Source: an uncultured Ferruginibacter sp. (GTDB lineage: Bacteria; Bacteroidota; Bacteroidia; Chitinophagales; Chitinophagaceae). From it: a stretch of DNA of 64,000 nucleotides. Where the stretch lies: contig CAYTQB010000003.1 in assembly GCA_964439615.1 (NCBI GenBank), forward strand, positions 21,453-85,452, given 5' to 3'. The notes under the pieces were generated by a model. It saw only the letters and a program-made list of their open reading frames with translations, did no database searches and was not told the origin of the DNA. The position numbers and the translations under genes are program-made. Shown here in pieces: positions 13,143 through 50,620 of this stretch. Each line of letters starts with the position of its first letter. Position 1 is the first letter of the stretch.

Positions 13143-13889
13143 TTAATTTTTTAATTCTTTTACGTTAATACTATTGAGATATTTATCCAGAGCTTTTTCA
13201 TCCATTAAATAATCTTCCTGGGAAGGCAATTCATTTTCATCAACACTACTGGCAACCAGTGCAGCTTTTACATCGCTTCCATTGGCCTCAAGGAATTTTA
13301 CAATATCCGCATCAGTAACTTTTTCCAGCTCTTCGTCAAACCTGTTTTCCCTGGCTATTTTATCTCCAAGGGCTACAACAGGATCAACACTATTTTCATT
13401 GCTGCTGGTAAATTTAAAAACACCCAGCGCCATTACACCGGTGAAGGCGGCAGCTACTGCATATTTAATGAACGTGGTACTGCGCCTTTTCATCACAACC
13501 ACTTTTGTTTGCTGTGGTTTTATCTTGCTACCAACCGTACCGGCCAATTCATCGAAATAACCTGAAGGAACTTCAAATACATTTTTGTTTTGAATGCCAT
13601 AGAGCATGGGTGACAAACTTTTCAGCTCATCAGCAGCATTCATGGCCTTGATCTTATCCATGATCCGATCACTCAGGTTCTCGAAATAACCTCCGGGAAT
13701 ATCGGCAGAAAAAGAGTTGAGTATAGAGCTAATGATTCCACTTCTTTCGCTTGATATGCCAGTCAGGATATCAGTGCTGAGATTTTCAAAATACCCTGCC
13801 GGAACAGTAAAAACATTTATCTTTTCCATTTCTGCAATGACAGGACTTAATTCCTTTAACTCGTTCAATATGTCAACACTATTTTCCAT
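13143..13889 (-). CDS. Putative single-pass anti-sigma factor with three VPxGYF repeats
   Basis: Follows the ECF sigma; repeats VFTVPAGYFENL, DIPGGYFENL, VFEVPSGYFDEL; one TM (YAVAAAFTGVMALGVF). Confidence 0.6.
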   Translation of the reverse strand: MENSVDILNELKELSPVIAEMEKINVFTVPAGYFENLSTDILTGISSERSGIISSILNSFSADIPGGYFENLSDRIMDKIKAMNAADELKSLSPMLYGIQNKNVFEVPSGYFDELAGTVGSKIKPQQTKVVVMKRRSTTFIKYAVAAAFTGVMALGVFKFTSSNENSVDPVVALGDKIARENRFDEELEKVTDADIVKFLEANGSDVKAALVASSVDENELPSQEDYLMDEKALDKYLNSINVKELKN

Positions 13890-13897
13890 TGCTTAAT

Positions 13898-13926
13898 TCA
13901 GACCTTTTAATCAGCTTAAAGTTTAA
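13898..13926 (-). promoter_or_regulatory. Candidate ECF-sigma promoter before the anti-sigma gene
   Basis: TTAAACTT-N16-TCTGA; the -35 overlaps the sigma stop codon. Confidence 0.6.
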
Positions 13927-14474
13927 CGATTCAGTATAAAATCCTCAATTTTTTTTACAGCATGGTGGTAGCTTGCTTTTAAGGCTCCTTCACTGGTTTC
14001 CAGTATCTGGCTCATTTTTTCGTAAGGCATTTCATCATAATACCGAAGATTAAATACAACCCTTTGTTTTTCAGGCAATTGCTGTATGGCCACCTGTAAC
14101 TTCCATTCCAGTTTATTGGCATCAAAATGCTTATCGGCCTTTAGCCGGTTACTTAATCCCGATTCCACATCACTCAGCGAAACCGAAGCCCTTTTTTTCT
14201 GTTGTTCCAGAAAAGTAAGGCTTTCATTTGTAGCTATGCGGTAAAGCCAGGTATACAACTGGCTGTCTTCCCTGAAGTTTTCAAGGGCATTCCAGACTTT
14301 TATAAACATGTTTTGAAGCACATCATTAGCATCGTCATGTGAAACAACCATACGGCGGATATGCCAGTAAAGTTTTTCCTGGTACTTTTTAATGATGAGG
14401 GTGAAACTGCGTTCTTTGGTAGCAGGATCCCTGAACTGAACAAGCAGTTCCTTATCGTCTAATTGTTGGTTCAT
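13923..14474 (-). CDS. ECF RNA polymerase sigma-70 factor (likely start ATG 14474)
   Basis: DANDVLQNMFIKVW, TWLYRIATN, LPEKQRVVFNLRYY and SEGALKASYHHA (sigma regions 2 and 4). Confidence 0.95.
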   Translation of the reverse strand: MNQQLDDKELLVQFRDPATKERSFTLIIKKYQEKLYWHIRRMVVSHDDANDVLQNMFIKVWNALENFREDSQLYTWLYRIATNESLTFLEQQKKRASVSLSDVESGLSNRLKADKHFDANKLEWKLQVAIQQLPEKQRVVFNLRYYDEMPYEKMSQILETSEGALKASYHHAVKKIEDFILNR

Positions 14475-14509
14475 ATAAGGTTGAGCAGTAAAAATAAAAA
14501 AACCAATCA

Positions 14510-14538
14510 TAAGATTGGCTTTTTACAAAAAGGTTTAA
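14510..14538 (-). promoter_or_regulatory. Candidate autoregulatory ECF promoter before the sigma gene
   Basis: TTAAACCT-N16-TCTTAT; overlaps the AGCCAATC/GATTGGTT terminator hairpin after the transketolase gene. Confidence 0.65.
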
Positions 14539-14543
14539 TCCAC

Positions 14544-15497
14544 TCACTTACGGGATATCACTTTTTCGGCTGCAGCAACTATATCCTTTGTATCCAAGCC
14601 GTACTTTTTAAGCAGGTCCAGGGGTTTACCACTCTCACCAAAAGTATCATTGGTTCCAACATACTCAATAGGTACCGGAAAATGTTTTGAAGCTGCCTGT
14701 GCAATACTATCACCGAGGCCCCCAATAATATTATGCTCCTCAGCAGTTACTGCACATTTGGTTTTTCTTATTGAAGCAACCACGGCTTCTACATCCAAAG
14801 GTTTTATAGTGTGAATATTTATCAGTTCAACGCTTATGCCTTTTTCTTCAAGAATTTTTGCGGCTTCAATAGCTTTCCAAACCATATGCCCGCAGGCAAA
14901 AATGGTCACATCGGTTCCGGTAGAAAACTGCTGAGCTTTACCAATTACAAAATCATTTTCGTTAGTAAAAATGGGCCAAACCGGGCGACCGAAACGAAGA
15001 TAAACAGGCCCCTGGTAATCAGCTATCGCAATAGTAGCCGCTTTGGTTTGATTATAATCTGCAGGTACGATCACCGTCATCCCCGGCAACATTTTCATTA
15101 AGCCGATATCTTCAAGTATCTGGTGTGTGGCTCCGTCTTCACCCAAAGTGAGGCCGGCATGGGATGCACATATCTTTACGTTTTTTCCACTGTAAGCGAT
15201 ACTCTGCCTTATCTGGTCATACACTCTGCCGGTTGAAAAATTTGCGAAAGTGGTTGTATAGGGAATCTTGCCACCGATAGTAAGCCCGGCCGCAATGCCC
15301 ATCATATTGGCTTCAGCAATACCACATTGAATGAAGCGATCAGGAAATTCTTTAATAAAGCCATTCAACTTCAAAGAACCTGCAAGGTCAGCTGTAAGTG
15401 CAACTATATTTGAATTTTTCCTGGCGGCATCTAAAATACCATCACCAAAACCACTGCGGGTGTCTTTATTACCGGTAACCTGAATATTGTTGAGCAT
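14544..15497 (-). CDS. Transketolase C-terminal subunit (pyrimidine-binding plus C domains); likely start ATG 15497
   Basis: GIAEANMMGIAAG, GEDGATHQ, GPVYLRFGR and EEHNIIGGLG motifs; TACTTTTG -7 element at 15532-15539. Confidence 0.9.
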   Translation of the reverse strand: MLNNIQVTGNKDTRSGFGDGILDAARKNSNIVALTADLAGSLKLNGFIKEFPDRFIQCGIAEANMMGIAAGLTIGGKIPYTTTFANFSTGRVYDQIRQSIAYSGKNVKICASHAGLTLGEDGATHQILEDIGLMKMLPGMTVIVPADYNQTKAATIAIADYQGPVYLRFGRPVWPIFTNENDFVIGKAQQFSTGTDVTIFACGHMVWKAIEAAKILEEKGISVELINIHTIKPLDVEAVVASIRKTKCAVTAEEHNIIGGLGDSIAQAASKHFPVPIEYVGTNDTFGESGKPLDLLKKYGLDTKDIVAAAEKVISRK

Positions 15498-15675
15498 AAA
15501 TAAAAAATTGAACACTGTATTAAAACAGGCGCAAAAGTAAAAGAAAGATTTGGTTGAAATAATGGGCAACTTAAAAAAAGTTGCTCACATTGTTTATCGA
15601 ACAATCTATTATGTGCTTTGTAAAAGTAATAGTCAGGAGTTTCCTTGTGAGGAGAGATGAAGATAACAGAGAAAA

Positions 15676-16731
15676 TCAATTCAACCCGGCTATCTGTGCC
15701 TTATACAGATTTTCGTCGTTTTTCAGCATTAATTCCCATTTCCATGCTGTAGCCATCATGTCTTGCAAGCTGAATTTGGGTATCCAGCCCAGTAGATTTT
15801 TAGCCTTATCGTTATTGGCATAAATAGCTATAACATCACCCGGCCGACGTGGGCCGATACGATAATTCAATTTAACTCCACTTATTTTTTCAAATTCATT
15901 AATAAGCTCCAATACACTAATGCCGTTTCCTGTGCCCAGGTTAAATACATCGCAATTAGTTTGATTCTTATCTTGAATAAGATAGTTTAGTGCCAGGGTA
16001 TGTGCATGAGCTATGTCGCATACATGAATATAGTCCCTGATACAACTACCGTCACGGGTGTCATAATCATTTCCATAAACCTGCATCATTGGTAATTTTC
16101 CAATCGCTGTTTGTGTAATTGCGGGAACAAGGTTTTCTGGCTTTCCTAATGGGAGCTCTCCCATTAAAGCCGAAGGGTGTGCTCCAACCGGGTTAAAATA
16201 ACGGAGTAAAATGGCTTTACTATTATTACAATTAACGGCTTCCTTTACTATTAACTCCCCCATTTGTTTGGTAGCGCCATAAGCCGATTCTGCCGCTTTC
16301 ATTGGCGTTTCTTCTGTAACGGGAATTTGATCGGGGTTACCATATACGGTGCAGGACGAAGAGAATACAATGTTTGTGATTTTGAATTCATCTGCACACT
16401 TTAAAATATTGATAAGGGAGTTTAAATTATTCTCGAAATAAAGCAATGGTTTTTTGACTGATTCTCCTACTGATTTGTAAGCTGCAAAATGAATAATGCC
16501 ATTGATATCCGGGTTTTCCTGGAAAACGGCAACAGTATCATCATAGATACAAAGGTCTACTTTATAATTCTTGATCTTTTTGCCCGTTATTTTTTCTACT
16601 GATTCCAGAATACTATCATTACTCCTGGAATTATTATCAGCAGAAATGACTTCAAAACCATTTTCAATCAGATCGACTATGGTATGAGCGCCTATATAAC
16701 CACAGCCGCCGGTAACTAGGATCTTATTCAT
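15676..16731 (-). CDS. galE: UDP-glucose 4-epimerase
   Basis: TGGCGYIGAHT, HFAAYKSVGES, YGATK and LRYFNPVGAH motifs. Confidence 0.96.
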   Translation of the reverse strand: MNKILVTGGCGYIGAHTIVDLIENGFEVISADNNSRSNDSILESVEKITGKKIKNYKVDLCIYDDTVAVFQENPDINGIIHFAAYKSVGESVKKPLLYFENNLNSLINILKCADEFKITNIVFSSSCTVYGNPDQIPVTEETPMKAAESAYGATKQMGELIVKEAVNCNNSKAILLRYFNPVGAHPSALMGELPLGKPENLVPAITQTAIGKLPMMQVYGNDYDTRDGSCIRDYIHVCDIAHAHTLALNYLIQDKNQTNCDVFNLGTGNGISVLELINEFEKISGVKLNYRIGPRRPGDVIAIYANNDKAKNLLGWIPKFSLQDMMATAWKWELMLKNDENLYKAQIAGLN

Positions 16732-16747
16732 AAATGCAAAGAAAACA

Positions 16748-16779
16748 AAAAATCACTCACAGCAATGCGTGATTTTTAA
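16748..16779. terminator. Probable terminator after the PiT gene
   Basis: AAAAAATCAC...GTGATTTTTT inverted repeat. Confidence 0.7.
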
Positions 16780-16795
16780 ACGATTGATTTAAATC

Positions 16796-18505
16796 TTAAA
16801 AAAACCAATGAAGAATATAGAATATGCCTGCAGCCAGTAAACCACTTACGGGTATCGTTAATATCCAGGCCCAGAGTAAATTTACAGTAACCCCCCAACG
16901 AACAGCAGATAATCGTTTGGTTGCCCCCACACCCATGATAGACCCTGTAATGGTATGTGTGGTTGATACCGGTATCCCCATCTGCCCGGTAAAAAATAAA
17001 GTAAATGCTCCTGCTGTCTCCGCTGCAACTCCCTCCAGTGGGGTAACCTTTGTAATTTTTGTTCCCATGGTCTTCACAATCTTCCAGCCTCCGCTCATAG
17101 TACCCAAACCAATGGCCAGGTAGCAGGCTATTGGCACCCAATTAGGCAAATCAGAAAAATTCTGGATGGATCCACTGGCTATTAAAGCAGCGCCGATGAT
17201 GCCCATTACTTTTTGTGCATCATTTCCACCGTGCCCGATACTGAATGCAGCAGAACTAAAGAGCTGCAGTTTTTTAAACATGTTGGCGACCTTGAAGGCA
17301 GTTGGAGTTCTTATTTTTTCAACATACAGGTAAACAAGGGAGAATAATATTGAAGTAAAGATGATACCCCAAACGATCATACTGTTATCTGCTTTATCAA
17401 TATCTTTTGCCAGTGATTTTTCTATGCTGAACCCTGCAATTTTCTTTTTCACTTTTGGTTTATTTACTTCTCCGATCGGGTAAATAGCTTGTAAAGCGGT
17501 CATTGTGCTATCGAGTGAGATCTCTTTTTTAAAGTATTTCTTTAAAGGTTCTTTATACTTTTCAGTAGCCTCTTTTGCAATAGCATATTCGGTTTTTATT
17601 TTATCGTCACTGGCAGACCTGGCTTCCAATACAAGAAAGTCATTGGCGTTGCGTACATCATCTTTTAAACGACTGGCTTCAATATCCTTTAACCAGCCAC
17701 TGTCCATAGCGGCTTTTGCAACACCTTTTGCTCCCAGGTTATCAAAATCATTTACCAGTGCATATATCTTTTTATAATTGGGTAATGCTTTATCAAGTTT
17801 TTCTTTTGCCACATTATATGCTTTAATGGCAGCTGTATCAGAAGGGTTATTTTCCTTTTTGGCCAGTGCTTCAGCCGCTTCTTTTTTATATTTGTCTATC
17901 TTTAAAAATTTCTGCAGGTTTTCATCCATCTTACTGGTCTCAAACTTATCAAATAACAGGACGGTTAAAAATGTTGCTAAAGCAATGATCCCGATCCTGG
18001 CCCATATATTCCTCATGATGGTTACGATGGTGATGAAAATAGAGATCAGCATGCCGATAAGCGGCGCCAGAAAAATAAAAATAACGGTGTTGAAGATGAT
18101 ACTTGATTCTACGATCTTACCCCAGTTGTAGCCCATGCCTTTCAGCAACAATGCATGAGCTATTGCTGCTCCGGCAAATCCTCCTATCAATGTATGCGAA
18201 GAAGAAGACGGAATACCATACCACCAGGTAAGCAGGTTCCAGAATATAGCTGCAATTAAGCCTGCTAAAATTACCGGTAGCGTGATGAACTCTTTATTTA
18301 CCGTTTTGCTGATTGTATTTGCCACCGCATGATCCTTGAAAATAAAATAAGCCACACAATTAAAAATGGCTGCCCAAACCACAGCCTGAAATGGCGTAAG
18401 CACTTTTGTTGAAACTACTGTAGCTATTGAGTTTGCTGCATCATGAAACCCATTGATGTAGTCGAAGATCAAGGCAAGGGCTATAATTACTATTACTAAG
18501 GTCAT
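16796..18505 (-). CDS. Inorganic phosphate transporter (PiT family) with a large insertion
   Basis: NGFHDAANSIAT, GIPSSSSH, GHGGNDAQK and PVSTTH signatures; ~230 extra residues in the middle. Confidence 0.93.
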   Translation of the reverse strand: MTLVIVIIALALIFDYINGFHDAANSIATVVSTKVLTPFQAVVWAAIFNCVAYFIFKDHAVANTISKTVNKEFITLPVILAGLIAAIFWNLLTWWYGIPSSSSHTLIGGFAGAAIAHALLLKGMGYNWGKIVESSIIFNTVIFIFLAPLIGMLISIFITIVTIMRNIWARIGIIALATFLTVLLFDKFETSKMDENLQKFLKIDKYKKEAAEALAKKENNPSDTAAIKAYNVAKEKLDKALPNYKKIYALVNDFDNLGAKGVAKAAMDSGWLKDIEASRLKDDVRNANDFLVLEARSASDDKIKTEYAIAKEATEKYKEPLKKYFKKEISLDSTMTALQAIYPIGEVNKPKVKKKIAGFSIEKSLAKDIDKADNSMIVWGIIFTSILFSLVYLYVEKIRTPTAFKVANMFKKLQLFSSAAFSIGHGGNDAQKVMGIIGAALIASGSIQNFSDLPNWVPIACYLAIGLGTMSGGWKIVKTMGTKITKVTPLEGVAAETAGAFTLFFTGQMGIPVSTTHTITGSIMGVGATKRLSAVRWGVTVNLLWAWILTIPVSGLLAAGIFYILHWFF

Positions 18506-18514
18506 ATTATTTTT

Positions 18515-18613
18515 AATGTGCTAATGTGCTGATTTACTAATATGCTAATTCCAAAAATGCAGAGAGCATGCGTTAAACATTAGCAAATAAGCACATTGGC
18601 TAATTAGCAAATT
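18515..18613. repeat. Inverted array of 8-nt units (AATGTGCT x4 / AGCACATT-like x4)
   Basis: Left aatgtgct-aatgtgct-gatttact-aatatgct; right cattagca-aataagca-cattggct-aattagca. Confidence 0.75.
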
Positions 18614-18615
18614 AA

Positions 18616-19266
18616 TTATGCATACTTCACAATTATACTTTCTATTACGTTTGCAGCATCCTCACATTTGTCAGTCACAATTTCCATCACCTGGTAAATC
18701 TCCCTTTTCTTGATCACCTCTTTGGCATCTGGTTCTTCAGCAAACAATTTTTCAATACTCATATCAAAAATATCATCACCCTGGTTTTCTATACTGTTGA
18801 TGGTAACAAGTGCATCGGTGATCTGGCGCATGTTCTTCATATTACGCAGTTCCTTTACTGCCGCATGTACCGCCACACATCCCTGTGCAATAATATCTGC
18901 CATCTTGTGAATGCCGGTGTCATTGGGATTAACCCGGTAAAAATTGATCTTCTTAGCTGATGCCTGGATATAGTCGGCAATATCATCCAGTGCAGAGGCC
19001 AGGTAGTGAATATCTTCCCGGTCAAAGGGTGTAATAAAATTCTTTCCCAGTTCGGTAAATATCTGGTGGGTGTAATCATCATTCACATGCTCCATATCTT
19101 CAATTTCTTTGATCAGCTTTGCCCTTTCATCAAAGTCGGGTTCATTAACCACTTCCTTTAATTTCTCTCCCATTTTTACCAATACATCTACCACGTTTTC
19201 GAACAATTGAAAAAACACCCTGTCTTTAGGTAAAAAGATCTTGAGAATTGAATTTAACCCTGCCAT
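18616..19266 (-). CDS. DUF47 / PhoU-like phosphate transport regulator (likely start ATG 19266)
   Basis: TELGKNFITPFDREDI, ENQGD and TDKCEDAANVIESIIVKYA motifs; directly upstream of PiT. Confidence 0.92.
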   Translation of the reverse strand: MAGLNSILKIFLPKDRVFFQLFENVVDVLVKMGEKLKEVVNEPDFDERAKLIKEIEDMEHVNDDYTHQIFTELGKNFITPFDREDIHYLASALDDIADYIQASAKKINFYRVNPNDTGIHKMADIIAQGCVAVHAAVKELRNMKNMRQITDALVTINSIENQGDDIFDMSIEKLFAEEPDAKEVIKKREIYQVMEIVTDKCEDAANVIESIIVKYA

Positions 19267-19327
19267 ATAATAAGTTTTGGGCAAAGATTGGTTATTACAC
19301 AAAAAACCAGTGTCTCATCAGGATTGA

Positions 19328-19355
19328 TAATAATTTCTTAACACAGGGGTAATAT
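19328..19355 (+). promoter_or_regulatory. Pho-box-like array upstream of the porin gene
   Basis: TAATAA (19328), TAACAC (19339), TAATAT (19350) at 11-bp period. Confidence 0.55.
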
Positions 19356-19390
19356 TAAATTGTTATTCCTTTGCGGCGAAATTTGCTATA

Positions 19391-20698
19391 ATGCTTACAA
19401 AAAGACTGCCTTTGCTGCTTGCAGCATTGCTATTGTGCCAATGGCTGCATGCCCAGTTCTTAATGGATATGGTAGATACCACCAAAGAAACAGGTAAAGG
19501 TCTATTGGCTGTATATAAAAAGTTCGATCACCTGCGTATCGGCGGGTATATTCAACCCCAGTTCCAGGTAGCTTCTGCAAAAGGGGCGAAAAATTTTGAG
19601 GGTGGCGATTTTGCTTCCCAGGTAAATAACCGTTTTATGTTGCGCAGGAGCAGGGTACGTATCGACTATATTCATTTTGGCAAAGACACAAAACCCGGTG
19701 TACAGATCGTTTTTCAGTTTGATGCCAATGAAAGGGGATTTACTGTAAGGGATGTATGGGGCAGGATCGTTGAAAATAAATTCAAACTCTTTTCTTTTAC
19801 CACCGGTATTTTTGCCAGGCCATTTGGTTATGAAATAAACCTGAGCAGCAGCGACCGGGAAAGCCCCGAACGTGGACGCATGAGCCAGTTGCATGCAAAG
19901 AGCGAGCGTGACCTGGGCGCCATGTTAAGCTTTGAAGTAAGGCAAAAATCAAATCCATTAAAAAATATCAGGATCGACCTTGCTGTATTCAATGGACAGG
20001 GCATTAATGCCACAGGCGAATTCGACAATACAAAGGATCTTGTAGGACGAATAATATTAAAGCCTGTTCCTATCAGCAAAACTATCCAGCTATCGGCTGG
20101 GGCTTCCTTTCTGCATGGTGGCCTACAGAATAATACCAAATACATTTATACAACAGAAGCCACCGGTGCTGTAAAAAGAGTAGTAGTTGATTCTGCCGCC
20201 AGTAATATTGGTACCACATCGCCCCGGCGCTATTATGGAGCCGATATGCAACTGAAATTCAATAATGGCCATAACCGAATTACCGAATTGAGGGCCGAAT
20301 TCATCACCGGCATACAAACCGGCACAGCCAATAACCCCGAAACACCTACCGCATTACTTACAGGAACCGATGGTTTTCACAAACGGCATTTCACCGGCGC
20401 TTATTTTTATTTACTGCAGCACCTTTTTTCAACCCAGCACCAGTTAATTATCAAATATGACTGGTATGACCCAAACAGTAAAGTAAAAGGCAACGAGATC
20501 GGGGCCCCGGGTTCTAATTTTACAGCTGCCAACATAAGATATAATACGCTTGGTTTAGGCTACCTGTATTATGTTACCGAAAACATCAAACTGGTTTTAT
20601 ACTATGCCCGGGTTTGGAATGAAAAAACATTACTCACCGGTTATACAACCGATGTAAAAGACAATGTTTTCACTTGCAGGCTGCAATACCGTTTCTGA
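19391..20698 (+). CDS. Phosphate-selective porin (OprO/OprP family)
   Basis: Signal peptide, RIGGYIQPQF, ESPERGRM, alternating beta strands, C-terminal LQYRF; phosphate-gene context. Confidence 0.75.
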   Translation: MLTKRLPLLLAALLLCQWLHAQFLMDMVDTTKETGKGLLAVYKKFDHLRIGGYIQPQFQVASAKGAKNFEGGDFASQVNNRFMLRRSRVRIDYIHFGKDTKPGVQIVFQFDANERGFTVRDVWGRIVENKFKLFSFTTGIFARPFGYEINLSSSDRESPERGRMSQLHAKSERDLGAMLSFEVRQKSNPLKNIRIDLAVFNGQGINATGEFDNTKDLVGRIILKPVPISKTIQLSAGASFLHGGLQNNTKYIYTTEATGAVKRVVVDSAASNIGTTSPRRYYGADMQLKFNNGHNRITELRAEFITGIQTGTANNPETPTALLTGTDGFHKRHFTGAYFYLLQHLFSTQHQLIIKYDWYDPNSKVKGNEIGAPGSNFTAANIRYNTLGLGYLYYVTENIKLVLYYARVWNEKTLLTGYTTDVKDNVFTCRLQYRF

Positions 20699-20711
20699 GT
20701 GCATATTCCGT

Positions 20712-20750
20712 TAACATATACGTAACATAGCAGTAACAATTACCTAACCT
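20712..20750 (+). promoter_or_regulatory. Pho-box-like array upstream of the TonB-dependent receptor
   Basis: TAACAT (20712), TAACAT (20723), TAACAA (20734), TAACCT (20745) at exact 11-bp period. Confidence 0.8.
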
Positions 20751-20805
20751 TACTTTCATCTTGACATAATACATAAGTAGTCTTTTTGCAGTAAATATTT
20801 ATTGC

Positions 20806-25070: not shown

Positions 25071-25078
25071 ATGCTTGA

Positions 25079-39951: not shown

Positions 39952-40485
39952 TTATATCGTATTTGTTCTGAATTTTTGTTTGCGTACAAACAACAACTCG
40001 GTTATAATAATCAAAAGCAAACTTACTGCAGTGGACAATAATGTTTTTAATATGAAGTACCAGATATTTCCAAACTGCCAGGCTTCCAGTAAAAACAGCC
40101 AGCCATGGTGAATGAATGTGAGCACCCCGGTAAATATCAAATAAGGCAACATGCCACCCATGCTTTTAAACGAAGGTTCCTCGTAATTGGTATCTGCACC
40201 CTCCTGCGGAATTAAAAGATTGACAAGAAAGGGGCGTATATAGGCTATCAGCACACAGGCAGCAGAATGAAAGCCCGGGTGATGGCGGAAACTATCCATG
40301 GTAAAGCCCAGGGCAAAGGCTATGATCATCTGCCAGGTACGCCCCATACGGAATGGCAACCACAAAATGAAAAGAAAGTAAATATAAGGCGTCACCATCT
40401 GGTGCAGCCGTATCTTATCCAGTACAAAAACCTGTACCAGTATGAACAGTGCAAAACGCAGAATATTTTTAACCAGTGTACTCAT
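39952..40485 (-). CDS. mreD: Rod shape-determining protein MreD
   Basis: Hydrophobic 177-aa protein between mreC and mrdA. Confidence 0.9.
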   Translation of the reverse strand: MSTLVKNILRFALFILVQVFVLDKIRLHQMVTPYIYFLFILWLPFRMGRTWQMIIAFALGFTMDSFRHHPGFHSAACVLIAYIRPFLVNLLIPQEGADTNYEEPSFKSMGGMLPYLIFTGVLTFIHHGWLFLLEAWQFGNIWYFILKTLLSTAVSLLLIIITELLFVRKQKFRTNTI

Positions 40486-40503
40486 GGGTTGGCCATAATA
40501 TCC

Positions 40504-41361: not shown

Positions 41362-41375
41362 CGGGGAAGGATATT

Positions 41376-41458
41376 TTAAATATTGAATGTTAAATGCTGA
41401 ATTAAAGACTTTAAGTTTTTGTTACCCGCCATTTAAAATTCAAAATTCAACATGTAAC
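41376..41458. repeat. Inverted array of 7-nt units (TTGAATG / CATTCAA)
   Basis: Left ttaaata-ttgaatg-ttaaatg-ctgaatt; right atttaaa-attcaaa-attcaac-atgtaac. Confidence 0.7.
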
Positions 41459-41467
41459 ATAGAAATA

Positions 41468-42493: not shown

Positions 42494-42736
42494 ATATGGT
42501 TTATGTGAAAAGGATTTTAATCAATGCCAGCAAAGTTGGTGGAAAATATTTGAAATAACAACGGCAAACCCTTTATTTTTCAACATTTTACAGAAAGTTT
42601 TACAAACCGGGTGTTTTGTCCAACCCGGTCTTCACCCCATATTCACCGGATTTTTTGTGCATCATTTTCTTGTTTGGGGAATGATTTTGATAAAACTAAA
42701 AGAACAAAAAACACAAACAAAAGAGAAGAAGAAAAA

Positions 42737-44032
42737 CTACAAAGCAAGGTCGGTTTTAAATTCATAACCAATGTCTGAACGAAAGTACATTCCTTCAAAA
42801 AATAATTGTTCCATTGCATAATTGGATTGTTCAACAGCTTCTGTAATATTATCGCCAAAAGAAGTGATGGTAAAAATTCTTCCTCCATTCGTAACAATCT
42901 TATCTCCATCTTTTTTTGTACCCGAATGAAAAATAATACTATCGGTCAAAGAATTTTCATTCAATCCACTGATCTCTTTTCCTTTCTCGTAATCTCCGGG
43001 ATAACCTCCACTAACAGCTACCACTGTTGCTGCAGCACGTTCATCAGTTTCAATGCTGATTTCATGCAGCCGGTTTTGCGATGCAGCGATTAATATTTCA
43101 ACGAGATCATTTTTTACTCTTGGTATCACCACTTCTGTTTCGGGATCGCCCATGCGGCAATTATATTCAATAACTTTTGGTTCACCGTTATCATTCATTA
43201 GTCCGAAAAAGATAAAACCTTTATATTCAAGCTTATCTTTTTTTAACCCTGCAATAGTTGGTTCAATAATTTTTTCTTTTACCTTCTTTAAAAAATCTTT
43301 ATCTACAAAAGGCAAAGGACTTACTGCACCCATACCACCTGTGTTGAGCCCTGTATCAGCTTCTCCTACTCTCTTATAATCTTTTGCTTCCGGAAGCAAC
43401 ACATAATGTTCTCCATCAGTTATCACAAACATGCTCAGTTCAATACCCTGAAGAAAATCTTCAATAACCACTTTCTTGCCAGCCTCACCAAATTTTGAAC
43501 GCAGCAGCATGAGATCAAATTCCGAAACAGCTTCCAGGTGGTTCTGACAGATCAATACACCTTTACCGGCAGCAAGCCCATCAGCTTTTAAAACTATCGG
43601 AGGCGTTTGCGCTTTAATATAATTAACCCCTTCTAAATATTTATCGGCAGTGAACTCTTCATAAGCGGCTGTTGGTATCCCATGCCTTTTCATAAATGCT
43701 TTTGCAAATGCCTTGCTTCCTTCTAACTGTGCAGCATTTTTTGATGGACCGATCACTTTTAATTTTTCAAAATCTTTCTTTCCCTGGAAAAAATCATATA
43801 TACCTTTTACCAATGGTTCTTCGGGGCCAACCAGAATAATATCAATAGCATGTTCTTTACATGCAGCAGAAAGTTTATCAAAATCTGTAGTAGCTATAGA
43901 AAGATTGGTACCACATAAAGCAGTGCCTGCATTACCGGGTGCAATAAATAATTGTTTGCATAACTTACTTTGTTTCATCTTCCAGGCCAGGGTATGCTCT
44001 CTTCCTCCTGAGCCAATTAACAGTATATTCAT
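42737..44032 (-). CDS. purD: Phosphoribosylamine-glycine ligase (likely start ATG 44032)
   Basis: IGSGGREH, GPEEPL, KADGLAAGKGV, NTGGMGA and EYNCRMGDPE motifs. Confidence 0.97.
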   Translation of the reverse strand: MNILLIGSGGREHTLAWKMKQSKLCKQLFIAPGNAGTALCGTNLSIATTDFDKLSAACKEHAIDIILVGPEEPLVKGIYDFFQGKKDFEKLKVIGPSKNAAQLEGSKAFAKAFMKRHGIPTAAYEEFTADKYLEGVNYIKAQTPPIVLKADGLAAGKGVLICQNHLEAVSEFDLMLLRSKFGEAGKKVVIEDFLQGIELSMFVITDGEHYVLLPEAKDYKRVGEADTGLNTGGMGAVSPLPFVDKDFLKKVKEKIIEPTIAGLKKDKLEYKGFIFFGLMNDNGEPKVIEYNCRMGDPETEVVIPRVKNDLVEILIAASQNRLHEISIETDERAAATVVAVSGGYPGDYEKGKEISGLNENSLTDSIIFHSGTKKDGDKIVTNGGRIFTITSFGDNITEAVEQSNYAMEQLFFEGMYFRSDIGYEFKTDLAL

Positions 44033-44248
44033 TGATGGTGTGATTGTGGTAGTGCTTGAGTTTATGGTTTGCGAATTTAAAATTCTGGCTGAAGATTTCA
44101 ATATTAATTTTTAAAACCCGGTTGGCACATAGGCTTTTTTCTTAACTTATCTTTTTAAAATAGGAGGACTGATTTTGATTGTACTAAAGAGAATTTCACT
44201 ATTTTGGGTAACTAAACCAACTAACGAGCATCTAAAAAATCACAAAAC

Positions 44249-46123
44249 ATGACTGAACAAGCAATAAAACAAACCGGCCACCCCAAGGGGTTATGGGTTC
44301 TTTTTGGAACAGAAATGTGGGAGCGTTTCAACTTTTATGGAATGAGGGCGCTTCTTTCATTATTTCTTGCTGAGGCATTATTAATGGGTGAAACCGAAGC
44401 TTCTATCATCTATGGAGGTTTCCTTGGCTTATGTTATCTCACCCCGATGCTGGGTGGTTATATTTCAGACAAATACCTGGGCAACCGCAACTGTATCTTA
44501 CTAGGCGGAACCGTCATGGGTATTGGCCAGTTACTGCTTTTCTTCAGCGGTACTTTATACAGCACCAATTTAGAACTGGCAAGGACCATTATGTGGCTGG
44601 CCCTTGTTGCGATCATATTTGGTAATGGCTTCTTTAAACCCAATATTTCTTCCATGGTAGGTAGCCTTTACCCCAAAGAGCAAAAAAATAAGCTGGATTC
44701 TGCTTTTACACTTTTTTACCTTGGTATAAATGTAGGTGCCACCCTCGGACAGATATTGTGCCCGATTGTTGGTGATGTTACAACAGATGGTGTAAGGGAC
44801 CTCACCGCATTCAAATGGGGTTTTCTTGTTGCAGCAGCAGCCATGTTTACCGGCACCCTGACCTTCCTGTTCTTAAAAAATAAATATGTAAAAACACCCG
44901 AAGGAGTTGCAATTGGTGGCAGGCCAAATAAATCAGATACACCTTCAGATGAGTCTGATACCGCAAAGTTTACGACCACAAATATTATCATTTCTATAGT
45001 TCTTCTGATCGCTGTTACTTACGGGTTCCATCTTGTATTTGATTCTCCCGGCGTTTCACTGATCAAAGCATGGCTTTACCCATTCATTTTTGCTTCAGGT
45101 ATCAGTTTGGGATTTCTGATCCTTTCCGATAAAACAATATCTAAAATAGAGCGTGACAGGATATGGGTCCTTTACATCGTTTGCTTCTTTGTAATGTTCT
45201 TCTGGGGGGCTTTCGAACAGGCAGGTTCTTCCTTAACCTTTATTGCCAATAACCAGACAGATACCCGGATACTTGGCTGGACTATGCAACCCAGTATGGT
45301 TCAAAGTTTCAACGGAATTTTTGTAATGGTATTTGCAATCCCCTTCAGCATTATGTGGGCCTGGATGAGTAAAAAAAGGCTTGAACCTATTTCACCGGTA
45401 AAACAGGCATGGGGATTATTACTGATAGCACTTGGTTATTTAATAATAGCAACCCAGGTAAAAGGCCTTGGGGATGGAGCTAAGATCGGTATCATATGGA
45501 TGATCGTTCTTTATCTGCTGCATACCTGGGGTGAACTTTGTTTATCTCCTATTGGTTTATCATTGGTAGCAAAGCTTGCACCAAAAAGATTTGCTTCACT
45601 GCTGATGGGTGTGTGGTTCCTCGGTAATGCAGGAGGATACGTTCTTACTGGTGTTCTCGGCGCATTACTTCCTCCATCGCCTGATAAATATATTGCCATG
45701 ACAAAAGAGAATGTGGACCTGAAGGCCATTCTTGAGGGTCAGAAGGAAGCAAGTGGAAGGGAATTGTTTATCCTGGGGCAGCAAAAGATCTCCTCGGCCA
45801 TTGATGTAAAGAAGGCAAAGGAAAATAATATTGATCTTGACAAAGCTTTTGAACAATCAAATGCCATGATCAAAGCAGCAGTAAAAAACAAAGACACAAC
45901 TTATACTATAAGCAAGACACTTGATTCTGTTTTAACACCTGCTCAATATGAGACCATCAAAGCCCAGGGACTTATAAAACCTGCGTATCCTTCCTTTATG
46001 GGATTCAAACTTAGGGATGTATACGATTTCTTCATGCTGTTCGTGGTGCTTTGCGGGCTGGCAGGACTTGTATTGTATGCCTTAACCCCCATGATGAAAA
46101 AGATGATGCATGGAGTAAGATAA
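44249..46123 (+). CDS. POT/PTR family di-/tripeptide:H+ symporter with a long C-terminal loop
   Basis: EMWERFNFYG (ExxER), GFFKPNIS, FEQAGSS and ELCLSPIGLS motifs. Confidence 0.93.
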   Translation: MTEQAIKQTGHPKGLWVLFGTEMWERFNFYGMRALLSLFLAEALLMGETEASIIYGGFLGLCYLTPMLGGYISDKYLGNRNCILLGGTVMGIGQLLLFFSGTLYSTNLELARTIMWLALVAIIFGNGFFKPNISSMVGSLYPKEQKNKLDSAFTLFYLGINVGATLGQILCPIVGDVTTDGVRDLTAFKWGFLVAAAAMFTGTLTFLFLKNKYVKTPEGVAIGGRPNKSDTPSDESDTAKFTTTNIIISIVLLIAVTYGFHLVFDSPGVSLIKAWLYPFIFASGISLGFLILSDKTISKIERDRIWVLYIVCFFVMFFWGAFEQAGSSLTFIANNQTDTRILGWTMQPSMVQSFNGIFVMVFAIPFSIMWAWMSKKRLEPISPVKQAWGLLLIALGYLIIATQVKGLGDGAKIGIIWMIVLYLLHTWGELCLSPIGLSLVAKLAPKRFASLLMGVWFLGNAGGYVLTGVLGALLPPSPDKYIAMTKENVDLKAILEGQKEASGRELFILGQQKISSAIDVKKAKENNIDLDKAFEQSNAMIKAAVKNKDTTYTISKTLDSVLTPAQYETIKAQGLIKPAYPSFMGFKLRDVYDFFMLFVVLCGLAGLVLYALTPMMKKMMHGVR

Positions 46124-46143
46124 GGTACTGATAAAATTATCTG

Positions 46144-46170
46144 AAAGGCGATCTCACAGTCGCCTTTTTA
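46144..46170 (+). terminator. Intrinsic terminator between the two POT genes
   Basis: AAAGGCGA-tctcacag-TCGCCTTT followed by TTATTT. Confidence 0.75.
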
Positions 46171-46193
46171 TTTGTTCTCTAAAACGATCTATT

Positions 46194-47834
46194 ATGTGGA
46201 AAAAACATCCTAAGGCTTTACCTTTTTTATTCTTCAGTGAAATGTGGGAACGGTTTGGTTATTATTTAATGATAGGCATTTTCACTTTTTATTTAAAAGA
46301 TGCCACCGCTGGGTTTAATATGGATGAAAAAGATTCGGCGAGCCTTTATGGAACTTTTATAGCCCTTGTATTTTTTACCCCGTTTTTAGGAGGCCTTATT
46401 GCTGACAGATACCTGGGCTACAGAAAATCTATAATTCTGGGCGGCCTTCTTATGGGTGCAGGTTACTGCCTGATGGGCATACACAGCATACAAATGCTTT
46501 ACGTTGCCATGACCTTGGTAATTGTAGGAAATGGTTTCTTTAAGCCAAATATTTCAACACTATTAGGTAATGTATATTCTGTTCCGGAGCATAAACATCA
46601 AAAAGATGAAGGGTACAATATTTTTTACATGGGCATAAATATTGGCGCTTTTATCTGCAATTTTTTTGGAGCAGCATTATATACCACAATCGGTTGGGCC
46701 GCTGCTTTTGCAGCAGCAGGAGTAGGAATGTTTATTGGCGTAATTGTATTTATTGCCGGCACCAAACATTATGCACAATTTGATGTACGTAAGCCATTAC
46801 AACCGGGAGACATGTCTTTGTGGAAAATAATGGCACTGGTTATTTTGCCTTGCCTGGTATTTGGCATCATTGGCTGGTTCATTAAAGGGGATGGCTACAT
46901 CTTTGATTCAAATTCAACCGATGCTTTCATTTTTGCATGCATACCTGTATTGCTTTTTTACACCGCATTGGTTTTTAAAAGCAATAAAGATGAACGGCCT
47001 GCAATGGGGGCAATGCTCTCCATTTTTTTAGTGGTTATATTATTTTGGGCTATTTTCAAACAAAATGGCAGCGCCTTAAATACATGGGCCAGCCGCTATA
47101 CAGAAAGGCATGTAAGCGGCTCAGGTGAAACTGTTTTATCTGCATTGAAACAAACGCAAACAATAGAATATAAAAAAGATACGGTAACAAAGCTGGATAA
47201 CCAGTTTAGAAAAGTGAAAATAAATGGCCAGGAAATAAAAGAATATAATTATCCTTCTTATTTCTTTAATATGGATTTTGCGAAAGATCCAATTACCGAG
47301 CCTGGTAAAATTAAAGCATGGGTGCCAAGCCTTAGTCAATCCATTAATCCTTTTTGGGTAATTGTACTTACTCCGCTGGTTGTTGTCTTTTTTACATGGC
47401 TTCGAAAAAAGGGTAAGGAGCCTTCTACACCTACCAAGATCGCATTTGGCTTATTATTATCAGCATTATCAGTTTTGGTTATGGTGGCAGCTGTAAAGAT
47501 CAGTAACAATGGCATTGAAAAAGTAAGCGTATGGTGGCTTATTGCCAGCTACGGTATTATTACCATTGGCGAGCTTTTTCTAAGCCCGATGGGATTATCA
47601 TTGGTATCAAAACTCAGCCCTGTCCGGATCACATCGCTAATGATGGGCGGATGGTTTCTATCTACTTCTATCGGCAATAAACTAAGTGGTATCCTTGCCA
47701 GCAAATGGGATGAATATGACAACAAAGCAAATTATTTCTGGCTGAATTTTATATTATTATTTGCTGCAGCAATATTGTTATTTGCCATGCTGAAATGGCT
47801 CAATAAGGTAATGAAAGAAAAAGGAGTAAACTAA
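46194..47834 (+). CDS. POT/PTR family peptide transporter, second paralog
   Basis: EMWERFGYY, GFFKPNIST and ELFLSPMGLS motifs. Confidence 0.93.
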   Translation: MWKKHPKALPFLFFSEMWERFGYYLMIGIFTFYLKDATAGFNMDEKDSASLYGTFIALVFFTPFLGGLIADRYLGYRKSIILGGLLMGAGYCLMGIHSIQMLYVAMTLVIVGNGFFKPNISTLLGNVYSVPEHKHQKDEGYNIFYMGINIGAFICNFFGAALYTTIGWAAAFAAAGVGMFIGVIVFIAGTKHYAQFDVRKPLQPGDMSLWKIMALVILPCLVFGIIGWFIKGDGYIFDSNSTDAFIFACIPVLLFYTALVFKSNKDERPAMGAMLSIFLVVILFWAIFKQNGSALNTWASRYTERHVSGSGETVLSALKQTQTIEYKKDTVTKLDNQFRKVKINGQEIKEYNYPSYFFNMDFAKDPITEPGKIKAWVPSLSQSINPFWVIVLTPLVVVFFTWLRKKGKEPSTPTKIAFGLLLSALSVLVMVAAVKISNNGIEKVSVWWLIASYGIITIGELFLSPMGLSLVSKLSPVRITSLMMGGWFLSTSIGNKLSGILASKWDEYDNKANYFWLNFILLFAAAILLFAMLKWLNKVMKEKGVN

Positions 47835-47836
47835 CC

Positions 47837-49030
47837 TTAAAGAAATTTCAGATAATCGTATTGTTTTCCGAGTATGGTCTTATCATCGGCACTAAGCCAT
47901 TTATTTAACACCGTAGCATATACATTTTTGAAGTCAACTTTGTGTTTCAGGTCACCCTCATTAAGATCAGCGAGATCTGGCATTGCATTCAAAATTCCTT
48001 TTTCCTTCAATCCACCACTGATAAAGAACATATTGTTTGCTGTTCCGTGATCGGTTCCGCCGCTTGCATTCTGGGATACCCTTCTGCCAAATTCACTGAA
48101 GGTCATCATCAGAACATCCTGGAAACGGTTATTGGCTTTCAGGTCGGCAATAAATGATTTTACGGCGTCATTCAGTTCTGTAAATAATCTTTTCTGCTGG
48201 TTGTCCTGGTTCACATGCGTATCAAAACTTCCCAGGCTTACATAATACACTTTGGTATTGATGTCGGAGAAGATAAGCGAAGCAATGGTCTTCAGGTCTT
48301 TCCCAAGTTCGGTATTAGGGTAGGTTTGTGATGAGGGATGAACCCGGCTTTGCTGATAAATATAATCAGCGCTGCTGAGTGTTGCACTCATGGTTTTGTA
48401 CAAATAGTCAATAGTTTCTTCCCCGTGCTGATGGTCGCTGTTCACATCTTTAAAATACTTTCCATTGCTGCTGTTGAATAATTTTTTAGGGTCCTTGAAT
48501 GCAAGGCCTTTATTCTCTTCTCCTTTTAATGCAAGACTTAATACATCATCCAGTTCCATAGCCTGGGTGGGTTTATCGCATCCTTTGCATTGAGCATCCA
48601 AATAGCGGCCAACCCAGCCTGTATTTATATATTCATTACTGTTGCTGGCGCTGTGCCAGATATCCATACTGCGGAAATGAGAACGGTCGGGGTTGGGATA
48701 CCCCACGCTGTTCAGTATGGACAGGTTTCCTTCATCATACAAACCTTTGAACGTTTCCAATGCCGGATTCAATGCTGTTTCATCGGTAAGCAACAAAGAT
48801 TTTTCCTTCGTAATCCCAAGCTTGGGCCTTTCCTTGTAATAAATATCATTACGCACAGGTATTACGGTGTTCAAACCGTCATTACCTCCGCTAAATTGAA
48901 TTACCACCACTACTTTATTACCGGGTGGCACCATCATCGGTCTTTCAAATGCCTTTAAGAATTTAGGCAGCATGAATGATGCCGTGGCCAATGAACCTAC
49001 TTGTAAAAATTCTTTGCGCTTAATAAGCAT
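47837..49030 (-). CDS. DUF1501 family protein with a Tat-like signal
   Basis: KRKEFL signal, GGNDGLNT, DRSHF, GSFDTH, FSEFGRR and GTDHG motifs. Confidence 0.9.
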   Translation of the reverse strand: MLIKRKEFLQVGSLATASFMLPKFLKAFERPMMVPPGNKVVVVIQFSGGNDGLNTVIPVRNDIYYKERPKLGITKEKSLLLTDETALNPALETFKGLYDEGNLSILNSVGYPNPDRSHFRSMDIWHSASNSNEYINTGWVGRYLDAQCKGCDKPTQAMELDDVLSLALKGEENKGLAFKDPKKLFNSSNGKYFKDVNSDHQHGEETIDYLYKTMSATLSSADYIYQQSRVHPSSQTYPNTELGKDLKTIASLIFSDINTKVYYVSLGSFDTHVNQDNQQKRLFTELNDAVKSFIADLKANNRFQDVLMMTFSEFGRRVSQNASGGTDHGTANNMFFISGGLKEKGILNAMPDLADLNEGDLKHKVDFKNVYATVLNKWLSADDKTILGKQYDYLKFL

Positions 49031-49041
49031 AATTTTTTATT

Positions 49042-49105
49042 TTGAATGTTGAATTATAAATGTTGAATAAGGCCTTCATTCAACATTCATCATTTATCAT
49101 TTAAC
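49042..49105. repeat. Inverted array of 7-nt units (TTGAATG / CATTCAA)
   Basis: Left ttgaatg-ttgaatt-ataaatg-ttgaata; right attcaac-attcatc-atttatc-atttaac. Confidence 0.8.
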
Positions 49106-50552
49106 ATAGTTGGTATTCCGGTGTACTCATCAGATTTACGATAGCGCTTTTTATATAGTTTTCCCTGTTCTCTGTATTCAGGTATTTCTCCAGCACTTTA
49201 TTACTTACCTGGCTTTTTGTTTGTAAGACCGTTGCTGATACATTCTCTAACAATTTTTCCCGTTGAACCTTCTCAAAAATTTTATTTACTACCGGCCATT
49301 CAATAGTGGCTGTACCACCTTTCACCGCTTCTTTCATTCTTTTTACATTGGCTTCCATCATTTGCCCCATCATTACATCATCATCGGCTTTGGGACGAAT
49401 GTCGGGCATCTCGTTTGCTGTAAGTATTTGAGGAATACGTAAACGCAACATCAGCGAACTGCTGTCTATCCAGCTCTTCCCCCCGGGCCAGCCCGCAACA
49501 TTGGGCGGAAAGAACAGTACCTGGCCCAAGGTGCGTTGAAACAATAATTGCGCCTGGTCATTTTCCATTTGCATAGGCAGTAACCTTCTTATGCCAACCA
49601 ATAATTCTACCGGGGATTTTATTTTAGTGCCCATATTTTTTTCAGCATAAAACCAGTCGCTGGTATATATATCTTCCAGCAGTTTTTTTATCTCGTAGCC
49701 GTTTTGATAAAAGCGGTTGCTTAACCATTCCACTTTCGCCTCATCAATCGTATCGTTTACAAAATATTTGTACAGTTTCTTTGTGATAAACCTGGCCGTT
49801 TGTTTTTGCTCTGTCAAAAGTTTAATGATCTCATCTCCGTCGAAATTTCCTGTTTTACCTAATACGGTTTTATTGCCATTATCATGCTGGTTAGGCCTGA
49901 AAACAAATTCGCCACGTGGATTAAAGCCCCAGCCCGTAAATGCCCTTGCTGCTTCCTTTACATCATTTTCGGTGTAATTTCCACGGCCCATGGTAAAAAG
50001 TTCCATCACTTCCCGGGCAAAATTTTCATTGGGGTGCTGTTTCCTGTTTTGCTGGTTATTCAGGAATTGGAGCATGGCCGGGCTTTTGCTCACAGCCATT
50101 AACATGTCTTTGAAGTTACCCAATGCATTCTCCCTGATCACATGCAATAACTCCTGCTGAAAATAACTGTTGTTAACACGGCAGGCAAAATGCCCATGCC
50201 AGAACAGGCTCATTTTTTCCCTCAACTGCGATTGACTGTTAACCATTTTATCAAGCCACGCAATGTTCAGTTTTTTCAATCCCTCCCTTGACATATCCTG
50301 TATTTCCTTTCGCTGCTCCCTGGTTAATTCGGATCTTTTCATGCCATCCATCTCTTTTGCCCCGGCGAAATAAGTATCGATCAGGTTTTGAGATACATTC
50401 ATCTTCTCAGGCATCTTTTCCGAGGTCTTTACCAAAAGCTCCCATAATTTTTTCTGTGAAATAGTATCAAGTGATTCAGCATTTTCGGCCATGGGGCCAA
50501 ATGCAGCACGCCACAATAAATGCTGATTTTTTAAACGATTGGATGCCGGCAT
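49101..50552 (-). CDS. DUF1800 family protein
   Basis: HLLWRAAFGP, LFWHGHFA, PNENFAREVMELFTMG, ARAFTGW and PPNVAGW motifs. Confidence 0.92.
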   Translation of the reverse strand: MPASNRLKNQHLLWRAAFGPMAENAESLDTISQKKLWELLVKTSEKMPEKMNVSQNLIDTYFAGAKEMDGMKRSELTREQRKEIQDMSREGLKKLNIAWLDKMVNSQSQLREKMSLFWHGHFACRVNNSYFQQELLHVIRENALGNFKDMLMAVSKSPAMLQFLNNQQNRKQHPNENFAREVMELFTMGRGNYTENDVKEAARAFTGWGFNPRGEFVFRPNQHDNGNKTVLGKTGNFDGDEIIKLLTEQKQTARFITKKLYKYFVNDTIDEAKVEWLSNRFYQNGYEIKKLLEDIYTSDWFYAEKNMGTKIKSPVELLVGIRRLLPMQMENDQAQLLFQRTLGQVLFFPPNVAGWPGGKSWIDSSSLMLRLRIPQILTANEMPDIRPKADDDVMMGQMMEANVKRMKEAVKGGTATIEWPVVNKIFEKVQREKLLENVSATVLQTKSQVSNKVLEKYLNTENRENYIKSAIVNLMSTPEYQLC

Positions 50553-50591
50553 AACAGTGAAGTTATTTTATGAAGGTCAACAAAACCGGTA

Positions 50592-50620
50592 TAAGACCAG
50601 TGTTATGACTCAAGGTTTAA
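50592..50620 (-). promoter_or_regulatory. Candidate ECF-sigma promoter before DUF1800
   Basis: TTAAACCT-N16-TCTTAT, identical boxes and spacing to the site before the ECF sigma gene. Confidence 0.65.

Follow-up and report, generated by a model that had tools for sequence, protein, structure and literature searches.

A conserved, predicted ECF-type promoter motif connects an RpoE-like sigma factor operon with a DUF1800-DUF1501 gene pair in Ferruginibacter and other Chitinophagaceae

Introduction

The sigma factors of the Escherichia coli sigmaE system (rpoE-rseABC) and of the Pseudomonas aeruginosa AlgU-MucA system (ECF02) are two-domain proteins of the extracytoplasmic function (ECF) type, a membrane-spanning partner is encoded directly downstream of them, and their promoters follow the consensus GGAACTT-N16-TCAAA or TCTGA. 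Here we describe a stretch of 64,000 nucleotides (nt) from a genome of an uncultured Ferruginibacter sp. (GenBank assembly GCA_964439615.1, contig CAYTQB010000003.1, positions 21,453 to 85,452; hereafter the window), which encodes an RpoE-like ECF sigma factor in the same arrangement and, 36 kb away, a pair of proteins of the families DUF1800 and DUF1501. An earlier inspection of this DNA (the original prediction) had proposed as its central inference that one ECF-type promoter motif ties the sigma factor operon to the DUF1800-DUF1501 pair, and phylogenetic footprinting now lends this link strong support at the sequence level. We consider it likely that the window carries a small regulon of the RpoE-like ECF sigma factor which is conserved in Chitinophagaceae and has three predicted promoters, including one for DUF1800-DUF1501.

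The sigma factors of the sigmaE and AlgU systems are also the closest solved relatives of the one described here. The predicted promoters, TAAAC(C/T)T-N16-TCT(T/G)A, have the same spacing as RpoE/AlgU promoters and share AAC(C/T)T and TCT(G/T)A with their consensus as it is generally given, while the -35 box starts with TTAAAC and not with GGAAC. In E. coli a sigmaE-dependent promoter, rseA P3, lies before the anti-sigma gene, and the rpoE promoter together with rseA P3 parallels two of our predicted promoters (P1 and P2 below), i.e. autoregulation and a second promoter before the anti-sigma gene (PMC8595263). There are differences as well. Compared with RpoE of ECF02 our sigma factor stays below the equivalog cut-off, and its partner is unlike RseA or MucA and carries VPxGYFExL repeats instead. 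Neither of the two downstream proteins matched RseA, RseB or RseC in Pfam or NCBIfam, and the third gene, unlike in rpoE-rseABC, encodes an unclassified secreted helical protein. A further difference from sigmaE/AlgU is that the P2 transcript is predicted to be leaderless. Finally, sigmaE and AlgU target porin-assembly or lipopolysaccharide genes, whereas the distal target here is DUF1800-DUF1501. The proposed circuit would work like that of sigmaE/AlgU, yet it lies outside that group.

The sigma factor may belong to ECF03, an RpoE-like group (Staron 2009; Casas-Pastor 2021) whose members, according to the latter survey, are mainly found in Bacteroidetes (PMC7826278); our protein is likewise a Bacteroidota ECF sigma factor with RpoE-like sequence. 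The comparative approach follows the same logic as the large-scale prediction of ECF regulons by phylogenetic footprinting, as outlined by Todor et al. 2020 (PMC7776599), where the autoregulatory promoter comes first and conserved copies before orthologous genes follow.

Results and Discussion

Sigma factor and promoter-like sites

The sigma factor gene (13923..14474, minus strand) encodes an RpoE-like ECF (group IV) protein of 183 amino acids (aa), identified with Pfam, NCBIfam and PDB. Its true start is the ATG at 14474 (MNQQLDD...) and not the start of the longer open reading frame at 14510, because orthologues align from MNQQ. The only domains are Sigma70_r2 (Pfam, 3e-15) and Sigma70_r4_2 (7e-14), i.e. 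sigma2 and sigma4. The general ECF model of NCBIfam is passed (sigma70-ECF, 98.5 bits against a cut-off of 42.9), and none of the specific NCBIfam equivalogs is, with the RpoE model TIGR02939 giving 97.4 bits against a cut-off of 236. A sequence search of PDB returned AlgU (6in7, 3e-21) and E. coli sigmaE (1or7, 1.5e-20) as the nearest solved structures, in line with the comparison with sigmaE/AlgU promoters drawn in the original prediction. Judged by sequence, we are dealing with a true ECF factor whose closest solved relatives are AlgU and sigmaE; the window contains no other sigma-like open reading frame.

Three sites on the minus strand share the pattern TTAAAC(C/T)T-N16-TCT(T/G)A(T/A), each with an exact 16-nt spacer. 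S1 (TTAAACCT-N16-TCTTAT, 14538-14509) lies 34 nt 5' of the sigma start. S2 (TTAAACTT-N16-TCTGAA, 13926-13897) is found at the junction of the sigma and anti-sigma genes, with its -35 box overlapping the sigma stop codon and its -10 box ending 7 nt before the anti-sigma ATG at 13889. S3, with the same boxes as S1 (TTAAACCT-N16-TCTTAT, 50620-50591), lies 38 nt 5' of the DUF1800 ATG at 50552. The coordinates, boxes and exact spacer reported earlier for these sites were all borne out by this sequence check. S1 is the predicted autoregulatory ECF promoter of the sigma gene (P1, 14509..14538), which is based on sequence, footprinting and the top matrix score. S2 is the predicted second ECF-type promoter at the junction (P2, 13897..13926), based on sequence and conservation, and S3 the predicted ECF-type promoter of DUF1800-DUF1501 (P3, 50591..50620), based on sequence, the boxes shared with P1 and footprinting. 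Transcription is predicted to start at about 14503-14501 from P1 and at about 50585-50583 from P3, and the short distance between -10 box and ATG would leave little or no room for a leader in the P2 transcript.

Chance expectation in the window

The degenerate pattern of the original prediction, which was derived from these very sites, matched three times in the window where 0.02 matches would be expected. The bare core AAAC-N18-TCT occurred at background level, with 13 matches against 10.6 expected. When the S1 boxes were used as query, S3 matched at 14 of 14 positions and the next best position of the window at 12 of 14, and a 14/14 match was obtained in none of 200 Markov simulations. S2 matched the S1 boxes at 11 of 14 positions, which was equalled by ten other positions of the window and hence is background. 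A weight matrix built only from the promoters of sigma orthologues in other genomes, with the window left out, ranked S1, S3 and S2 as the top three sites of the window (20.6, 15.3 and 14.1 bits), and the best random score in shuffled windows was 14.2 +/- 2.4 bits. The expectation that the motif stands out from background frequency was thus confirmed for the identity of the S1 and S3 boxes, which beats chance, and not for the bare core or for S2, which score at background. Likewise, the matrix scan with background statistics that had been suggested placed the three sites on top when run on the window, with their significance coming from conservation and not from the score. As the pattern is post hoc, the core is at background and the matrix scores are close to chance, the in-window statistics are indecisive and comparative data were therefore needed.

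Conservation across Chitinophagaceae

The window derives from a Ferruginibacter-like member of the Chitinophagaceae that occurs in activated sludge. For the sigma side, 80 loci from Chitinophagaceae genomes (sigma 80-93% identical) were compared. TTAAAC-N18-TC(T/A) was present at most 200 nt 5' of the sigma start in 60 of the 80 orthologues, with about 1.2 expected. The spacers of the sigma promoter were wholly different between clades, and the motif was kept in clades that lack a hairpin found at this position in Ferruginibacter. The target side comprised 80 metagenomic loci with DUF1800 orthologues (58-90% identity), 74 of which had enough upstream sequence. Here a matrix score of at least 12 bits was reached within 200 nt upstream of the DUF1800 start in 64 of 74 loci, as compared with 1.9% of 800 control segments taken from these loci, and upon inspection TTAAAC-N18-TC was present 5' of 73 of the 74 orthologues. 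Between site and start codon there are 20-70 nt, and in most cases 25-50 nt. Information content was about 1.7 bits per position in the boxes and about 0.15 in the spacers, with about 19 (sigma) and about 24 (DUF1800) independent spacer families.

It could be argued that the likeness of S3 to S1 arose by chance in A+T-rich intergenic DNA and has no function, as the score of S3 is within the range of the best random scores and the bare core is at background frequency. The probability of this is practically nil in our view: the occurrence of the site in 64 of 74 DUF1800 loci, down to 58% protein identity and with unrelated spacers, effectively refutes it when compared with the control segments, and a complete box identity never appeared in the simulations. 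Conservation in other genomes is also what makes S2 and S3 significant. Within 0.9 Mb of related loci only two other matches of at least 15 bits were found, both inside rodA-like coding sequence (L052:6264-6293, plus strand, 20.3 bits; L069 near 6492, minus strand, 15.9 bits). Both are located around a conserved KIAIGSGG motif, one antisense and one sense, and are probably chance by-products of this conserved coding segment.

At the sigma/anti-sigma junction an S2-type site (TTAAACTT-N16-(G)TCTGAA) was found in 64 of 79 loci, counting matrix scores of at least 10 at the same junction. The distance from its -10 box to the ATG is nearly constant at about 8 nt, while the preceding stop codon, the reading frame and the spacer vary. 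An alternative explanation is that S2 is no promoter and is conserved by some other constraint on the junction, for instance coupled or re-initiated translation or a signal for RNA processing, which would leave P1 and P3 as the only promoters. It is indeed unusual for a -10 box to lie so close to the ATG, with no room for a leader, the -35 box shares nucleotides with the sigma stop codon, and S2 is at background when compared with S1 in the window. Nevertheless we regard this explanation as improbable, since the conserved letters are exactly the promoter boxes at promoter spacing, whichever stop or frame precedes them and with the spacer varying, and since E. coli has a sigmaE-dependent promoter dedicated to the anti-sigma gene (PMC8595263).

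The original prediction had also asked whether DUF1800/DUF1501 genes are neighbours of ECF sigma and Spy-like genes in other genomes. This is not the case, as the sigma and DUF1800 genes were adjacent in none of 160 loci; the two gene sets do share genomes. In three Ferruginibacter-like genomes the sigma operon and DUF1800-DUF1501 are in one chromosomal neighbourhood, at distances of 36 kb (the window), 42 kb in the metagenome-assembled genome CAZYAT01 (L001/L162; motif at both loci, 18.7 bits) and 89 kb in the isolate Ferruginibacter sp. SUN106 (L018/L161; motif at both loci, 21.8 bits). At the sequence level the predicted regulon link is well supported because the motif is conserved at all three places and the gene sets share genomes. 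The sequence comparisons strongly support one predicted ECF-type promoter motif that is conserved at all three gene positions across Chitinophagaceae, with spacers and flanks diverging around it.

Terminators and expression

Two terminators of upstream genes are located close to the predicted promoters. A terminator scan identified a terminator-like hairpin of the upstream gene for a transketolase C-terminal subunit (14497..14524, minus strand; CCAATC-TTAT-GATTGG followed by a T-run), which is confined to the Ferruginibacter-like clade, whereas the P1 boxes are conserved more widely. In six related genomes (L002, L003, L005, L008, L014, L019) the terminator hairpin is interrupted by an insertion of 60-70 nt, located 3' of the P1 -10 box and 5' of the sigma start; the distance from -10 box to ATG is 77-100 nt in these genomes versus 32-47 nt, with the boxes intact. 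On the other side of the window, the strong terminator of the upstream cytochrome c gene (50653..50682, minus strand; 13-bp hairpin and T-run) is situated 5' of P3 and insulates it from read-through.

These structures raise the question of whether S1 and S3 have in common a hairpin or terminator whose loop contains TCTTAT, rather than a promoter, given that S1 is part of a terminator hairpin and that a small hairpin with TCTTAT in the loop also surrounds the -10 box of S3 (50601-50585). We rejected this explanation, to which we assign a very slight probability. When 63 DUF1800 sites were folded around the -10 box, the energies were no better than those of shuffled sequence (mean z = -0.2), and the hairpin at S1 is the transketolase gene terminator of a single clade, beyond which the boxes are conserved.

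Public metatranscriptome contigs indicated that all genes of the sigma operon and of the DUF1800-DUF1501 pair are expressed in sludge communities. RNA contigs span the junction of the anti-sigma gene with the gene for the secreted helical protein and the 70-nt gap between DUF1800 and DUF1501, which agrees with the proposed operon structure and with co-transcription of the latter two genes. None of these contigs led from the transketolase gene into P1 or from the cytochrome c gene into P3, nor did any bridge positions 50560-50642.

Assessment of the regulon model

Several points weigh against the proposed regulon. In the window taken alone, the matrix scores of S3 (15.3 bits) and S2 (14.1 bits) equal the best chance score. 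The P1 -10 box sits within the loop of the transketolase gene's terminator hairpin (14524-14497), a location that the original prediction had missed and that could disturb promoter use. The candidate anti-sigma factor is without a known anti-sigma domain in Pfam, NCBIfam and a PDB profile search, and sequence inspection found no signal peptide in the DUF1800 protein. The RNA contigs are short, sparse and of low depth, end short of the promoters and may contain DNA. Lastly, Bacteroidota have many ECF paralogues, and another one could read the motif; the average is about 22 ECF sigma factors per genome in Bacteroidetes as given in the Casas-Pastor survey (PMC7826278), and our search for other sigma genes covered 64 kb of genome.

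In the last case the motif would be functional and be read by another ECF paralogue, or by a DNA-binding regulator with a bipartite site, making the sigma operon and DUF1800-DUF1501 mere co-targets. We think this is unlikely. The motif has ECF geometry (AAC in the -35 box, a 16-nt spacer and a TC-type -10 box), and AlgU and sigmaE use promoters of this type. Moreover, nearly every genome has it directly 5' of both the sigma gene and the partner gene, and a motif upstream of an ECF sigma gene is described by Todor et al. as the standard signature of ECF autoregulation (PMC7776599). We favor the sigma factor encoded in the operon itself. Beyond the sequence data, we infer for the model that this sigma factor recognizes the motif, where transcription starts, that the membrane partner acts as an anti-sigma factor, that there is an inducing signal and that the targets serve the envelope.

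Candidate anti-sigma factor and secreted helical protein

In 79 of 80 loci the sigma gene is directly followed by the gene for the candidate anti-sigma factor (13143..13889, minus strand; 248 aa), which was assigned by position, hydropathy and alignment. The protein has a cytoplasmic N-terminal part with three VPxGYF(E/D)xL repeats and, by hydropathy, one predicted transmembrane segment (residues ~140-160) that is preceded by basic residues and followed by a periplasmic tail of about 85 aa. In the orthologues (L001-L080) the repeat reads N-V-(F/Y)-x-V-P-x-G-Y-F-(E/D)-x-L and occurs in 3-5 copies, with protein lengths of 243-431 aa. No database family covers this repeat protein. The search for anti-sigma domains returned only leucine-rich-repeat matches, which are spurious and caused by the internal repeats.

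The start of the third gene (12706..13134, minus strand) follows 8 nt after the anti-sigma stop, and the gene is present in at least 58 of 80 loci. According to sequence and an AlphaFold2 model it encodes a secreted, all-helical protein of 142 aa. Its N-terminus (MKKYLLIFSFLIGGFYAVQAQ) resembles a signal peptide upon sequence inspection and is conserved in orthologues, which further share a core LxLTxxEAQKFWP and a basic C-terminal tail. The family comprises 2,721 proteins and carries no Pfam domain; for the 142-aa protein itself there was no Pfam match even at E = 10 and none in NCBIfam.

The original prediction had labelled this protein Spy/CpxP-like. Similar to Spy, CpxP and ZraP, it is small, secreted, all-helical and encoded in an operon with a stress-type sigma factor, yet there is no detectable sequence relationship, and its motif is LxLTxxEAQKFWP and not the LTxxQ of Spy/CpxP. 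Neither the single sequence nor a 40-sequence profile found a Spy, CpxP or ZraP chain in PDB, and the profile gave no PDB match at all. The AlphaFold2 model, of moderate confidence, has four helices (mean predicted local distance difference test, pLDDT, of 66.5). A Foldseek search with it gave no match at E <= 0.001, and Spy and CpxP were missing from the top 50 matches, the best being a weak one to the Salmonella STV protein (probability 0.85, E = 0.8). As neither family models nor the PDB profile nor AlphaFold2 with Foldseek gave any sign of a Spy/CpxP identity, we regard the label as unsupported.

The DUF1800-DUF1501 pair

The DUF1800 protein (49101..50552, minus strand; 483 aa) matches Pfam PF08811 (1.4e-116) over its full length, i.e. 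profile positions 1-419 of 419. It is followed by a DUF1501 protein (47837..49030, minus strand; 397 aa; Pfam PF07394, 6.4e-25) that reaches 88.6 bits where 27 are required; its best stretch covers the C-terminal third of the model. This order is found in 72 of 80 loci. The DUF1501 protein carries an N-terminal Tat-like (twin-arginine translocation) signal, KRKEFLQVGSLATASFMLP, and the corresponding motif K-R-(R/K)-x-F-(L/I)-Q with a hydrophobic stretch is present in 74 of 75 orthologues. Because of this export signal the output of the pair is probably periplasmic.

Neither DUF1800 nor DUF1501 had relatives in PDB by sequence. An AlphaFold2 model of DUF1800 was of insufficient quality, with a mean pLDDT of 54 and a shallow alignment in which all sequences were at least 73% identical, and its Foldseek matches were noise. 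A weak Pfam match of DUF1800 to PSD2 (DUF1585; E = 6e-5, residues 241-301), which is a domain known from planctomycetes, was also observed. In planctomycetes DUF1501 proteins are paired with PSCyt/PSD-domain proteins. Here DUF1501 is likewise encoded beside a larger partner, one with the weak PSD2 match, although that partner is DUF1800; the match hints at a distant relationship of DUF1800 with the DUF1501 partner proteins of planctomycetes. In the literature that was searched we found no link between DUF1800 or DUF1501 and an ECF sigma factor, although such a link may be listed in large ECF survey datasets, and the literature that we found on DUF1800 held nothing on its regulation or function.

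The original prediction regarded the pair as an effector of an envelope or periplasmic stress response. Our analysis did not substantiate this, and what points in that direction is the Tat-like signal of DUF1501 and the transmembrane topology of the candidate anti-sigma factor. In view of the sigma factor type, its membrane partner and the export signal, one may reasonably guess at an envelope stress role.

Other features of the window

The operon of the sigma, anti-sigma and 142-aa protein genes is closed by an intrinsic terminator (12654..12680, minus strand; hairpin of 10-12 bp with 7 G-C pairs, then a T-run). Directly 3' of it lies a gene (9581-12556, minus strand) for a BNR/sortilin-like repeat protein of 991 aa that has a C-terminal sorting domain for type IX secretion. 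This gene is outside the conserved unit, because it is without an upstream ECF motif and occurs in only 6 of 80 sigma loci. Unrelated housekeeping genes (among them those for a phosphate transporter, a TonB receptor, ATP synthase subunits, mreBC-PBP2-rodA, purD and peptide transporters) fill the 36 kb between the two loci, and the matrix scan did not find the ECF motif at any gene of this interval.

Nor did the scan reveal further regulon members in the window, where the next best matches lack the TC of the -10 box, lie in genes on the wrong strand or score at background. A weak match of the last kind (6990-6961, minus strand; 11.6 bits, TTAAACAA-N16-TCACAA) extends over the stop codon of a Zn-peptidase gene, and its end is 10 nt 5' of the first of two tandem clpP genes (6225-6950), which are followed by clpX (4175-5608). 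Its geometry is like that of S2. Degradation of the anti-sigma fragment by ClpXP is part of the sigmaE pathway of E. coli. A search with Rfam found no family at its gathering threshold in the 64-kb window (1-64000).

Conclusions

In the circuit that we propose from the sequence, the sigma factor would presumably be kept inactive by the adjacent membrane protein (13143-13889). RNA polymerase carrying the released sigma factor would then initiate at three promoters that read TTAAAC-N18-TC(T/A)(T/A)A. P1 would provide positive autoregulation of the sigma gene. P2 would yield a leaderless or nearly leaderless mRNA for the anti-sigma factor and the secreted helical protein and thereby negative feedback, as with rseA P3 of E. 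coli. P3, 36 kb away, would drive DUF1800-DUF1501, whose output is probably a periplasmic enzyme (DUF1501) that is possibly paired with DUF1800. A bolder version, which we put forward tentatively and would not call probable, is that DUF1800-DUF1501 represents the main and perhaps the only distal output of an RpoE-like envelope-stress sigma factor that is core to Chitinophagaceae, a Tat-exported periplasmic enzyme complex which is deployed upon envelope damage. Control would then be exerted by a new class of anti-sigma factor, with VPxGYFExL repeats in variable copy number, made from a leaderless sigma-dependent transcript along with a new family of secreted helical proteins (~2,700 members).

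The predicted design of the circuit, with autoregulation and anti-sigma feedback, is itself conventional, while the assignment of the target is, to our knowledge, new and, by comparative sequence analysis, well supported. The families DUF1800 and DUF1501 are widespread, and hardly anything has been published on them; the conserved promoter link would give them a first regulatory context, turning "function unknown" into a testable question through the connection to one highly conserved ECF sigma factor. Two more unclassified partner families are flagged by the analysis, the repeat-containing anti-sigma candidate and the secreted helical protein. For the Chitinophagaceae, a family that is abundant in soil and activated sludge, the motif would define which promoters a core alternative sigma factor recognizes and what its minimal regulon comprises.

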